Under the pieces are notes generated by a model, which saw nothing but the letters and a program-made list of their open reading frames with translations, was not told the DNA's origin and did not search any database. Shown in pieces: positions 12,404-39,314 of a stretch of 64,000 nt of DNA. Position 1 is the stretch's first letter. Each line of letters begins with the position of its first letter. This DNA comes from a virus (taxonomy: Duplodnaviria; Caudoviricetes): IMG/VR virus record IMGVR_UViG_3300031998_000052, positions 1-64,000 of that record; one strand, written 5' to 3'. Made by a program: the position numbers and the translations under genes.

Positions 12404-12418
12404 TGGCACGATTATTGC
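12404..12418 (+). promoter_or_regulatory. sigma54-type -24/-12 motif upstream of the beta-clamp-like gene
   Basis: TGGCACG-ATTA-TTGCA, 32 nt from the -12 C to the ATG at 12450. Confidence 0.6.
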
Positions 12419-18484: not shown

Positions 18485-19252
18485 ATGAAAAAGAGAAGAG
18501 TCGAAATAAAAACCATTGATGAGCGCAGGCCATACGTACTGTGGCGCCGCGTCTCGACGAAGGAGCAGGGTGACAGCGAATTGGGTCTGTCTGCCCAGAG
18601 CACCATCGCCAAGACGTTCATGGGCCGGGAGCCGGTAGCGACGTACACGGACGTGAGGTCAGGTACGAAACTCAAGGAGTGCTCCGGCCTCTGGGACGCT
18701 ATCGCAGAGTGCAAGGAAAAGGACTACGTTCTGGTGGTGGCGAAGACGGACAGATGCCGTAACGTACAGGAGGCGCTGGATATCTTGGATGCAGTCGGGG
18801 ACCGCAGGCTGATATTCTGTGACCTTCCGTCCTGCGACCGCTTCATCCTCACGGTGATGTTCGCCATGTGGGAGCGCCAGGCTATCATGGGCAGGATCAA
18901 TACGAAGGTTGCCCTTGCAGAGCGCCAGCGCCAGATCAAGGAAGACGGCGGCTTCTTCTCTAAAAGCGGAAACTGGGTCACGCACCTTGGCCGGTCCAAG
19001 GGCTGCGACACCAGTAAGGCCACAGCCGCCGCAGGTGCGGTTGCAGCCGGTAAGTCTCAGGAGTGGAAAGATGATTCCGCTCTGTACTCCTGGGTCACTA
19101 TCCAGGTCCTCAAGCGCAGGCCGAGGAAGGAGATAGTGGCCGACGCCCGGGAACTCTACGAGAAAAACCCGGAGAAATATTGCACACGGAACGGGAGGCC
19201 GCTCACTGCGGCCATCCTCAGCCATTACATTAAAGACATTCAAAAATCATAG
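18485..19252 (+). CDS. serine recombinase (resolvase/invertase catalytic domain)
   Basis: YVLWRRVSTKEQ (catalytic Ser), DVRSG, LVVAKTDRCR. No large-serine-integrase zinc ribbon is evident. Confidence 0.85.
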   Translation: MKKRRVEIKTIDERRPYVLWRRVSTKEQGDSELGLSAQSTIAKTFMGREPVATYTDVRSGTKLKECSGLWDAIAECKEKDYVLVVAKTDRCRNVQEALDILDAVGDRRLIFCDLPSCDRFILTVMFAMWERQAIMGRINTKVALAERQRQIKEDGGFFSKSGNWVTHLGRSKGCDTSKATAAAGAVAAGKSQEWKDDSALYSWVTIQVLKRRPRKEIVADARELYEKNPEKYCTRNGRPLTAAILSHYIKDIQKS

Positions 19253-19257
19253 GAACC

Positions 19258-19803
19258 ATGAAAAAAGTTACAATCGAAATCCCTGAGGGAAAGGCATTGA
19301 AGTTCAAGGACGGCGCCTACGTCCTGGTAGATGACAACGTGATGGAGCGCATCAAGACCTTCGACGATGCGTGCCGCGAAGTGACCGGCAAGTCCGAGGA
19401 GGAGTGGCTGGCCGAGAATGAGACGGATAAGATGGAGCCGGACGTGCTGGCATACCTCAAGATGCGCATCATCGTTGCCGTCCTCAACGAAGGATGGAAA
19501 CCCACGTTCGAGGATGGTGAGACTCGGTACTACCCTTACTACTGGCACTACACCAAGTCCGAGTGGGAGGGCCTGAGCGCATCCAGGCGGAAGGAACTGG
19601 AGCCTACGGTCTGCCTCGTCGGCGGTAGCTCGTCTGACGGGTCGAAGTCGGGGCCGCTCTGCGTGAGCTCGCTCGACGCCTGGTCGGACGCGCGCTCGAG
19701 CCTCGGCGCCCGCCTTGCATTTAAGACGGGGGAACTCGCCCGTTATGCCGGGAAGCAGTTCTTCGACATCTTCAAGAAATTCTACTACGATGGAGTGCTT
19801 TGA
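19258..19803 (+). CDS. remote DGR target protein (181 aa) with a variable region near the C-terminus
   Basis: Encodes VCLVGGSSSDGSKSGPLCVSSLDAWSDARSSLGARLAF, collinear with the TR at 37743-37854. Confidence 0.85.
   Translation: MKKVTIEIPEGKALKFKDGAYVLVDDNVMERIKTFDDACREVTGKSEEEWLAENETDKMEPDVLAYLKMRIIVAVLNEGWKPTFEDGETRYYPYYWHYTKSEWEGLSASRRKELEPTVCLVGGSSSDGSKSGPLCVSSLDAWSDARSSLGARLAFKTGELARYAGKQFFDIFKKFYYDGVL
19608..19719 (+). repeat. DGR variable repeat VR2
   Basis: 112-nt ungapped match to the TR with 18 mismatches, 14 of them at TR adenines. All 12 mismatches in the 3' part are at TR adenines. Confidence 0.92.
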
Positions 19804-20131
19804 AGTATGCGTTCTCCTGAGGGGAACAGTTAGACAAGAGGATCCGCACTGCCCTTCCCAGTGGAGGGGCAGCGGATGCTACGATATTGACGCGCCCGCA
19901 AGCCAGCGGGTGACGGTGACTGTACCTGCCAATAATGAGGGATTGGCGAGAAACCTGGCCAGCAATTATTGCTACGAGGGTGAGGGAGGATGCGAACTTG
20001 AGAGCGTGGATGATGTCGAGATTAAATGCGTCATCCCCTGTGGCGAGTGCGACGATCCTGGCATGGAATTTGATTGGGGAGAATTGGAGGTGGTTGAGGA
20101 TGATGGCCCCGATCCGGATGAGCGTGACTGA
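19790..20131 (+). CDS. acidic Cys-rich hypothetical protein
   Basis: 113-aa ORF overlapping the end of the target gene. Confidence 0.55.
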   Translation: MECFEVCVLLRGTVRQEDPHCPSQWRGSGCYDIDAPASQRVTVTVPANNEGLARNLASNYCYEGEGGCELESVDDVEIKCVIPCGECDDPGMEFDWGELEVVEDDGPDPDERD

Positions 20132-36544: not shown

Positions 36545-36892
36545 CTAATTATCGAGAGAATCCATGACCACATGGGCAATCTCCTTTGCTTTAGCCCTCC
36601 ACTCCTGGAAAGCCTCCAGTTCGGCGGCGTGTTCGGGAGTATCGGAGCCATTGGCCAGGATAGCCTCCACCTGGTCCTGAGGGAACTTGTCGCGGACGAT
36701 AGCAGACACGATCTTGCCGTATTCGACGGCCCCTTCGATGTCCACGTTCTCGAAGACCAGGACTTCAATTTCCTCTCCGTCCACTTCCTTGGTCTCCGTG
36801 TCGTAATCGAAGTTGATGCGGGTGATAGCGCCCTCGCGGAGCACTACGACGCCAGCGGGGACTTCCCCGTTGTAATCAGCATATACTTTCAT
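36545..36892 (-). CDS. hypothetical protein downstream of the DGR RT locus
   Basis: 115 aa ending ELEAFQEWRAKAKEIA; a similar ORF is recalled next to RT in Bacteroidetes phage DGRs. Confidence 0.6.
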   Translation of the reverse strand: MKVYADYNGEVPAGVVVLREGAITRINFDYDTETKEVDGEEIEVLVFENVDIEGAVEYGKIVSAIVRDKFPQDQVEAILANGSDTPEHAAELEAFQEWRAKAKEIAHVVMDSLDN

Positions 36893-37459
36893 AAGTCTAT
36901 AAATTTGTACGTGAATTTTCCTCTTCCGAGATCGACGCGGGTGATGCCCACGTTTTCGACCGGAAACACTTTTTGACCGGCCTGCTCTGCCTTCCGGCAG
37001 TCATCCAGGATGTTCTTCATCTGGAACGAACTGATGGTGAACTTAATCTTCTCTCCGTCTTCCTTCTTCACCATGACCATGTACCGGTCGGTGTTCATCT
37101 TGGACGGGTCCCGCAGGTCCGGCGTTGGCACGTTGGCCTCAAAATCAAGGACCGTGAGGCGCTGGTTCAGCACCTCAAGGATGTTACCTTTCCGGCACTC
37201 AAAGAACTTCTTCCCGTCCTTTGAACTGGCCTTCTCGATAGATATTCCTTTCTCAGCGAATCCCATGATTGGTTGTCCTGTTATTGTTTTCCAGAGTTGG
37301 GCGCAGTCTCCATACATGCACAAGCCCCGGTAACTGTCAATAATTTCCTTTCCTCTTCGACCGCTTGGCCTTGCCGCCTTTCTGAGAGCGCTGGATGGCT
37401 AACCGCAAGTTATCCTCGTCCGCAACCTTCTCCAGGATATGCCCTACTTTTTTCGTCAT
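36889..37459 (-). pseudogene. DGR reverse transcriptase remnant: N-terminus joined to C-terminus, catalytic core deleted
   Basis: The ATG at 37459 gives MTKKVGHILEKVADEDNLRLAIQRSQKGGKAKRS (DGR-RT N-terminus), stopping at 37337. An overlapping frame gives KEIIDSYRGLCMYGDCAQLWKTITG (DGR-RT C-terminus) and continues without a stop into the 125-aa domain 36889-37266. No YxDD region lies in between. Confidence 0.8.
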
Positions 37460-37742
37460 ACAAAGATACGCATTTTTTTATTCCCTGCAATAGTGATACT
37501 GCCCGGGACGTTCGAGAGTGTCCATCGGGGTTCCACGCACGACGCTTACAACGCGCCGGTCAATGGGAACCACACGCTCGGACAAACCTACATTAGCCCC
37601 GCTCGCAGGCCCATACCTCCGGGCCGCTCTCCCGCATACGAGATGTTCTGACTCTCCGGCGCGACCTGCCGCCGGGGTCAAGGCTGAGGAGGTTCGCCGG
37701 CCGGTGTCTATCCGGCAAGGCGATGAAACAGGGTTTTCACTT

Positions 37743-37854
37743 TGTATGGCGGGCGCCGATGTTCGAGTTCGCGTTCGACCAGGCGTTGTTCGAGTTCACG
37801 TAGAGCGGCCCCGACTCCGACCCGATAATCGAGCCACCGCCGACGAGGCAGACC
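37743..37854 (-). repeat. DGR template repeat (TR)
   Basis: Lies outside any gene and is AAC-rich: GTC TGC CTC GTC GGC GGT GGC TCG ATT ATC GGG TCG GAG TCG GGG CCG CTC TAC GTG AAC TCG AAC AAC GCC TGG TCG AAC GCG AAC TCG AAC ATC GGC GCC CGC CAT ACA. Confidence 0.92.
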
Positions 37855-37997: not shown

Positions 37998-39314
37998 TTA
38001 CAGATCGGCCCCATCTACAATGGTCACTGGACCATAATATGCAGGGCGGGCGCCGAGGGCCGAGGCCGAGCCCAACCAGGAGTAGGTCGAGTTCACGCAG
38101 AGCGGCCCCGACTGCGACCCGTAATTCGAGCCGCCGCCGACAAGGCAGACCTGGCCTGTGGCGTTGCCATAGAAGTAGTCAGACCAGGACTTGTTGCTGT
38201 CGCCACCCGTCACGGAAGTGGCAATCATGTCGAAGTATTCACCCTTGGTCATGACCTTGACATATCCCGAGGTGGTCAGGCGAGTCAGTTCGCGTAACTC
38301 ACCGTCCGGATGGGAGGCAAGTTCGGAGGAAGAAGGAAGGCGGTTGCCCTTGTAGATATACACCTCGTCACCGTCCTGCCCGGAGTTGCCGCTGTTACCG
38401 AAGAAGATACCCTGGACAAACTCCCACTGGAGGTTCCACCAGTCCTCGATACCCAGAACAGAGACGTGCGTGGAATCGGCGTTGGCACCAGATGCGATGG
38501 CCACCGTACCGGAGGCATCACCCAGGTCCTTCGTCAGACCGGTAGTCTTGAGGACGGTCGATGCGTTCACGGTATCCCAGGAGAGACCGGAGGCACCACC
38601 TACGCCCTGACCGAGGCTGGCCTGTGCGTTTGCGTTACCCTGGGCCTCAGACAGGCACATAATCTCGAACCAGCGCAGGCAGTCGTAGTCCTTGAGGCCC
38701 CAGTTGGCACCGAAGGACTGGGCTGCGCTGAAATAGTCGCTGATGGTCTTGGACGAGGTGTCGAAGGTGACACCGGAACGGGACACCAGTTTTCCGCTGG
38801 CCAGGGAGCCTTTGTAGGCGCCGATGACCATCCGCTTTCCATTGTCCGCGTTCGCGAGATAGTGGCCGGAGATGGGGAACTCTGAGCACCACAGGTACGG
38901 GATGCTCGTCTCGGCGTCCGTCACCACCAGGTAGTACAGACGGGGAGCGATGACAACCACGGAACCCCTGGTCTCGTCCAGGGTCGTACCGTCGGCGAAG
39001 ACACCGGAGTTGTTCTTGTGCAGTTTGGCCGCACGACCGTTGGCATCCATCAGATACCGGCCCACCTTTGCCTTGTAGGAGTTGTAAGCCGCGATGTTGC
39101 CGATCATGCCCCAGGCGGGGCTGGTCTGCGTTGCGTCCTTGAGAGGGAATCCCCACGCTACCTGGTGGAGAAGTTCCGCCTGGCCTTCGTTCATGGCCGT
39201 CTCGAAGTCCTCCATCGAGATTCGGCGGATGGACCCGCCGATCTCGACGATGAGGCTGTTCGATTTCAGCATGGACGAAACAGACGTTGCTGTTGCTAAA
39301 TTCTTGTTTGCCAT
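37998..39314 (-). CDS. DGR target 1: tail-associated protein with a C-terminal C-type-lectin-like variable domain
   Basis: IGAYKG, GIEDWWNLQWEFVQG and terminal VCLVGGGSNYGSQSGPLCVNSTYSWLGSASALGARPAY; sits in the tail gene block. Confidence 0.88.
   Translation of the reverse strand: MANKNLATATSVSSMLKSNSLIVEIGGSIRRISMEDFETAMNEGQAELLHQVAWGFPLKDATQTSPAWGMIGNIAAYNSYKAKVGRYLMDANGRAAKLHKNNSGVFADGTTLDETRGSVVVIAPRLYYLVVTDAETSIPYLWCSEFPISGHYLANADNGKRMVIGAYKGSLASGKLVSRSGVTFDTSSKTISDYFSAAQSFGANWGLKDYDCLRWFEIMCLSEAQGNANAQASLGQGVGGASGLSWDTVNASTVLKTTGLTKDLGDASGTVAIASGANADSTHVSVLGIEDWWNLQWEFVQGIFFGNSGNSGQDGDEVYIYKGNRLPSSSELASHPDGELRELTRLTTSGYVKVMTKGEYFDMIATSVTGGDSNKSWSDYFYGNATGQVCLVGGGSNYGSQSGPLCVNSTYSWLGSASALGARPAYYGPVTIVDGADL
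38040..38151 (-). repeat. DGR variable repeat VR1
   Basis: 112-nt ungapped match to the TR with 21 mismatches, 13 of them at TR adenines. Confidence 0.9.

Follow-up and report, generated by a model that had tools for sequence, protein, structure and literature searches.

In Bordetella phage BPP-1, the DGR serves a single adjacent target, the tail-fibre CLec protein Mtd, and includes Avd. Sequence is transferred from the template repeat (TR) to the variable repeat (VR) with mutagenesis at adenines, and an IMH at the 3' end of VR sets the direction. For Quimbyvirus, two VRs are described, one of them in a gene downstream of the tail fibres, and the second target is distal, on the opposite strand and termed 'non-structural' (Benler et al., 2021, PMC8008677). 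A Nature paper of 2025 reports four prophage species with a distal second VR, for which it gives genome maps only (PMC12629997). As in our case, this VR was revealed by a search of the genome with TR; its surroundings include non-structural or counter-defence genes, and it was read as part of a phage-host arms race (PMC12629997). Both the layout, a distal opposite-strand second target combined with a three-frame reverse transcriptase (RT), and the idea of an intracellular, anti-defence or host-takeover role for the second target are already in print (Benler et al., 2021, PMC8008677; Nature 2025, PMC12629997). The locus analysed here, VR2, lies in a window of 64,000 nt, the whole stretch under study, from a viral record of 76.6 kb (CheckV 100%). 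Most probably it represents a remote second target belonging to a phage DGR of the Quimbyvirus type, and we put the probability of this reading, including the mechanism, the role in conflict and the frozen state set out below, at roughly 0.8. The same arrangement is known from published work on related Bacteroides phages of the gut, the reading of its function is plausible but not new, and VR2 reveals no new mechanism. What is new for this genome, judged from its alignment with relatives, is the deletion of the RT core.

The locus shares several traits with the Quimbyvirus/LoVEphage type. Its product is homologous to a protein of ~180-195 aa in PHROG 11581 (gp58 of Phocaeicola phage PV4-TP1, PQ571302), VR is placed near the C-terminus and followed by a conserved tail, and it is separated from the RT cassette by many kb, is encoded on the other strand and is not part of the structural module. 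Likewise, one TR also serves a target in the tail module, and the RT consists of three overlapping frames, here in relatives of this genome. Besides the loss of the RT core, the differences concern the neighbouring genes, which include an invertase-like gene, small unknown ORFs and a glycosyltransferase gene instead of the published neighbourhood of methyltransferases, nuclease and tRNA ligase that PV4-TP1 does have, and the terminase: TerL is 26% identical to that of LoVEphage and 38% identical to those of the Parabacteroides phages PF672P1/P2. From the TerL values, we regard this genome as a distinct lineage with the same DGR layout. In comparison to BPP-1, the DGR has a second target besides the one in the tail module, remote and non-structural; a search for an Avd-like gene was negative, and the RT is spread over three frames in the relatives and deleted here. 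The features are compiled in Table 1.

Table 1. Features of the DGR and of the VR2 gene region, in coordinates of the window.
Feature	Position	Strand	Basis or remark
Serine recombinase / DNA invertase-like gene, upstream	18485..19252	+	Pfam Resolvase, phrog_125; same pairing in L019
DGR target gene, PHROG 11581 family, 181 aa	19258..19803	+	ORF, phrog_11581 E=4e-34
VR2, TR-homologous variable repeat	19608..19714	+	Hypervariable codons span 19627-19704
Candidate IMH: GC run GGCGCCCGCC, then TTGCAT	19705..19724	+	Shared with VR1, unlike TR
113-aa gene, downstream	19790..20131	+	Start overlaps VR2 gene end
3' RT remnant: thumb-region end and ~130-aa extension	36889..37357	-	Comparison with relatives
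RT remnant	37337..37459	-	34 native N-terminal codons, junction, six out-of-frame codons, stop
GC-rich spacer from TR to RT start, 283 nt	37460..37742	-	Sequence; syntenic in G001
TR	37743..37854	-	5' third differs from TR of four relatives at five adenines
VR1 target gene, 438 aa, tail protein phrog_5302	37998..39314	-	VR1 at 38040-38151

The target gene is well delimited, as independent gene calls give the same model, and the string of a 255-aa resolvase gene, the 181-aa gene and a 113-aa gene was recovered by an independent gene call on another assembly. The invertase-like gene stops 6 nt before the start of the VR2 gene; the 113-aa product is without a family match. The 181-aa protein begins with a conserved N-domain (residues 1-117), continues with the VR module (118-154) and ends in a helical tail that is likewise conserved (155-181). 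The initial annotation had described a protein free of signal peptide and transmembrane segments that continues about 27 residues past VR, and both statements hold: no transmembrane segment or signal-like N-terminus was seen in Kyte-Doolittle windows of 19 residues (maximum mean 0.98, with a charged N-terminus), and VR ends at residue 154, exactly 27 residues before the stop.

Over 112 nt, VR2 (19608-19719, +) aligns to the reverse complement of TR (37743-37854, -) without gaps, as had been stated, and 14 of the 18 mismatches fall on the 20 adenines of TR (hypergeometric P=3.9e-10). On the 3' side of the invariant GGGCCGCTC block, every one of the 12 mismatches of VR2 is at a TR adenine (P=4.4e-9), compared with 12 of 15 in the same part of VR1 (38040-38151, -), which makes VR2 the cleaner copy, in agreement with the earlier description. 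The count of 12 out of 12 given there is correct, but its last two members should be set apart: 19715 and 19717 fall within the GARLAF codons, invariant in 69 homologues, and are by this comparison a fixed difference between the IMH of VR and the IMH* of TR and not the result of mutagenesis. For the syntenic relative G001, all 16 mismatches between TR and VR2 are at adenines (P=2.6e-14). The 5' part of VR2 contains four non-adenine mismatches to its own TR (19627, 19634, 19637, 19645), which vanish when VR2 is compared with the TR common to four relatives; they arise because the TR of this genome, and not VR2, has changed, at five adenines. Against the consensus TR of these relatives, VR2 shows 15 differences, 14 at adenines and one that copies a polymorphism of its own TR. 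In the four relatives, TR reads GGT AAC TCG (A/G)AT AAC GGG TCG AAG at this site, and the changes in our genome (37812-37854, -) are AAC>GGC, AAT>ATT, AAC>ATC and AAG>GAG. This TR looks as if it had itself been adenine-mutagenised or converted from a VR.

In the 3' part of VR1, three mismatches to TR are not at adenines, and one of them equals the TR base of the relative L009, so that VR1 was either last rewritten from an older version of TR or has drifted; VR2, unlike VR1, matches the present TR. The distance from the VR1 gene to TR is only 144 bp.

Natural variation of the family gives direct access to the question of adenine specificity. A word-indexed search returned 1836 homologues of the 181-aa protein, and an exhaustive search yielded 1404 clusters at 50% identity. 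Among 69 homologues with 58-90% identity, which were used for the entropy analysis, entropy exceeds 2 bits at 11 codons, and 12 codons are variable (124, 126, 127, 130, 135, 137, 139, 140, 144, 146, 148 and 149). All 12 correspond exactly to the adenine-bearing codons of the relatives' TR, and hypervariation is confined to them. At the DNA level, 25 of 107 columns vary between five VR2 alleles from different contigs; these comprise all 22 TR-adenine columns and three more at which the cognate TR itself is polymorphic and each VR2 has the same base as its cognate TR. The selective pattern is equally distinct. Between this genome and G001 (~76-82% nucleotide identity), the scaffold outside VR has a dN/dS of 0.16 with a dS of 0.45, and within VR there are 11 nonsynonymous and no synonymous codon differences. 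Taken from these alignments, the VR2 family is an active DGR target in nature that is hypervariable at the TR-adenine codons. The hypervariable protein postulated in the initial annotation is hence borne out, and so is its placement as a second target remote from TR. Homologues in DGR-free phages with one and the same VR2 and no adenine-specific variation had been named as evidence to the contrary; this is not what was found: the variation tracks the TR-adenine codons.

Behind the GC run GGCGCCCGCC, VR1 and VR2 continue with yTGCAT (CTGCAT in VR1) and TR continues with ATACAA in every genome examined, and the point of divergence between VR and TR is the same in PV4-TP1. This split is a candidate for the IMH/IMH* distinction that would give DGR homing its direction. 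A perfect hairpin with a 6-bp stem and a 4-nt loop directly follows the IMH of VR1 (38014-38029, -; z=-3.2), and its stem is kept in the relatives. After VR2 of this genome, the corresponding candidate hairpin does not reach significance (z=-0.5), and it is absent from G001. The spacer between TR and the RT start presumably represents the 3' part of the DGR RNA. The only Rfam match in the window is a tRNA.

Concerning the family, the match of the 181-aa protein to phrog_11581, a group of unknown function, spans residues 21-176, and tblastn finds 'hypothetical proteins' of LoVEphage, PV4-TP1 and BI-TP1 with 34-36% identity over 81% of the query (E 1e-5 to 2e-11). For gp58 of PV4-TP1, a 107-nt VR (L014 6267-6373) matches a TR (L015 770-876) with mismatches only at adenines, and this TR adjoins the RT of that phage. 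Pfam gave no match for the 181-aa protein, nor for 107 members of its family and nine fused forms of greater length; the fused form P0237 is the exception. PF03781 (FGE-sulfatase) and PF07603 (Lcl_C) have no match in the genome at E<=10, and the ESM Atlas returned only unnamed viral clusters for the 181-aa protein. A profile search against PDB sequences gave a chance match only (E 0.7).

A structure prediction for a CLec-type fold had been proposed as a check. Using an alignment of 107 sequences, AF2 reached a mean pLDDT of 81.5 and a pTM of 0.71, with a confident N-terminal beta-hairpin and helices (residues 12-117) and two C-terminal helices (158-176). In VR itself (122-149), pLDDT is below 50, so that the N-domain and the C-terminal helices are modelled with confidence but the CLec fold is unconfirmed. 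The model from the single sequence was useless (pLDDT 45). An hhalign comparison of the family with an FGE-type CLec profile built here is not significant (E 0.004-0.012, probability <10%); within this weak match, the VR alignment is ungapped and colinear. Using HHpred, Benler et al. (2021, PMC8008677) reported a CLec domain in the Quimbyvirus homologue. The chimeric relative P0237, encoded on a 5.2-kb contig in ENA, shares the N-domain as far as the residue at which VR begins; from there on it continues as a full CLec domain of the FGE-sulfatase type (PF03781, E=4e-31). Because of this fusion, the N-domain can be regarded as a separable module that is able to carry different variable modules. 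One might go further and see in PHROG 11581, with its at least 1404 clusters at 50% identity, a very large non-structural class of DGR targets of Bacteroidota phages, in which a variable cassette of ~40 residues, and not a complete CLec, is grafted onto a separable helical N-domain, as an 'adaptive' counter-defence binder against variable proteins of hosts or rival phages. We consider this extended reading speculative and rather doubtful.

In the genome, the - strand at ~33.6-59.3 kb holds the genes for structure and lysis, namely those of endolysin, tail proteins, tape measure and major head protein, followed by portal and terminase on the + strand. The VR2 gene, 18.0 kb from TR, is on the + strand, opposite to TR, VR1 and all tail and head genes. 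Further downstream are a GtrB-like glycosyltransferase moron at a distance of 2 kb and a topoisomerase-like gene. The motif TGGCACG-N4-TTGC occurs in six exact copies (4524, 5246, 12404, 26179, 33558 and 63575; 0.07 expected), each apparently pointing along local transcription, and the VR2 gene belongs to a + strand block flanked by the copies at 12404 and 26179.

The non-structural setting claimed earlier applies here and in four other lineages, as the gene is found among early, DNA-metabolism and moron genes throughout. In L019, the family member follows a resolvase gene near a dUTPase gene, in another lineage it precedes a DnaB/AAA_24 helicase gene, and in PV4-TP1 it lies among methyltransferase, radical-SAM and RtcB genes. 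In L017 (6001-6552), the member P0112 takes second place next to a divergently oriented HTH_3 repressor gene at one end of a prophage. P0112 represents 22,898 member sequences in one 90% cluster, and its prophage end adjoins bacterial sulfatase, GH2 and OmpA genes. In none of the five lineages examined was a family member found among structural genes, which supports a role outside the virion. The gene context thus fits a non-structural role, as far as gene order can indicate it.

The local peculiarity of this genome is the state of its RT. The RT region is full length in four relatives. In relatives (L005 9588-11032; L009 5853-7297), its reading passes from frame 0 to +1 and then to +2. A comparison of G001 and L009 shows no indels across 1.45 kb, with the ratio of synonymous to nonsynonymous substitutions best in frame 0, then 1, then 2. 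The frame of the synonymous-substitution signal switches at ~nt 590 and ~nt 860, and each later frame begins with a conserved ATG; because of these start codons, the three frames may also be translated separately rather than joined by two frameshifts. In PV4-TP1, PF00078 is matched twice, by two different open frames of 275 and 111 aa. In contrast, our genome has neither a PF00078 match nor a YxDD motif in the whole record. A gap of 874 bp relative to G001 and L009 removes the RT core, with the junction between 37358 and 37357 and a few bases of microhomology at this point. Upstream of it, beginning with the ATG at 37459 (-), 34 codons can be aligned to the N-terminal part of the RT in G001 and L009; past the junction the frame is lost, and the remaining sequence corresponds to the last part of the thumb region and a C-terminal extension of ~130 aa. 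This post-thumb extension is still open as a 144-aa ORF (36889-37323, -) and has no family match. No PF05635 match was found in the genome at E<=1, a profile that a divergent accessory protein could escape; since no Avd-like gene was found, the extension might be the accessory part. The deletion was seen in one assembly and rests on it, as the junction was found in no other IMG/VR contig. With the core deleted, VR2 cannot currently diversify in cis, and by this comparison it is a frozen allele unless a co-infecting relative supplies the RT.

From these observations, we propose the following course of events. In the intact relatives, TR RNA would be reverse-transcribed by the RT of three overlapping frames with misincorporation opposite adenines, and the cDNA would replace any VR with a matching 3' IMH, whatever its site or strand. 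Such a replacement would rewrite 12 codons of a protein of ~180 aa, with a theoretical repertoire of ~8e12 variants for the ancestral TR and ~1e10 for the TR of this genome. The product would most likely act as a non-virion ligand binder in phage-host or phage-phage conflict. In our genome, the 874-bp deletion has taken the RT core, and VR2 remains frozen unless a co-infecting relative gives the RT.

That TR and VR2 are merely an ordinary dispersed repeat or a recombination product is a view to which only the absence of an RT from the record would lend weight. It is refuted by the adenine specificity (P 4e-10 to 3e-14), by population variation confined to TR-adenine positions and by a dS of 0 in VR against 0.45 in the scaffold, and we regard its probability as negligible. 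A more serious objection concerns the frozen state, as a co-resident related phage could provide the RT in trans and keep the DGR active. TR, the spacer and the two VRs with their IMHs are all intact, VR2 equals the present TR at every non-adenine position of its 3' two-thirds, and related phages with a full-length RT co-occur in similar samples. However, the record itself offers no RT and DGR RTs act on their cognate RNA; moreover, the drift of the own TR at five adenines and the three non-adenine mismatches of VR1 both fit decay. Continued activity in trans thus appears improbable to us.

The second set of alternatives retains the DGR and assigns a different role to the protein. It might be a virion-associated accessory adhesin, a decoration or tail-tip add-on, with VR2 binding host or mucus like VR1. 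Most phage DGR targets are adhesins, the use of one TR for VR1 and VR2 means that both sample the same sequence space, and a weak match links the VR module to the C-terminal end of the tail protein phrog_5302 (E=5e-4), although this match is to be expected because of the shared TR. Against a place in the virion stand the position in early, replication or moron blocks in five lineages, the strand opposite to all tail and head genes in this genome, and fold matches to virion proteins that do not rise above noise, so that we see only a small chance for it. Somewhat better founded, though still unlikely, is a lysogen-expressed sensor or exclusion factor, which would guard the prophage-carrying cell against other phages rather than act in lytic counter-defence. 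Bacteria are known to possess conflict sensors diversified by DGRs, in the very abundant P0112 lineage the gene is next to a repressor at a prophage end, and a glycosyltransferase moron lies close by here. Relatives are temperate, as is the case for LoVEphage (PMC8525569). The position beside the repressor, however, would suit early lytic genes equally well, and the 181-aa protein has no effector domain and no match to defence families in a comparison that left out PADLOC. We consequently retain the non-virion ligand binder of a Quimbyvirus-type DGR as the preferred reading.

For Quimbyvirus and LoVEphage, the literature already asks what benefit is derived from hypermutating a small protein that probably acts outside the virion. 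To this question, our data add a distant lineage with the same two-target layout and a very large target family, with a separable N-domain and a short variable module, whose hypervariation lies at the TR-adenine codons in the lineage examined. They also add a natural RT-deletion variant in which both targets would be frozen. In comparison to its RT-intact relatives, this variant could serve as a natural control for effects on fitness and host range.
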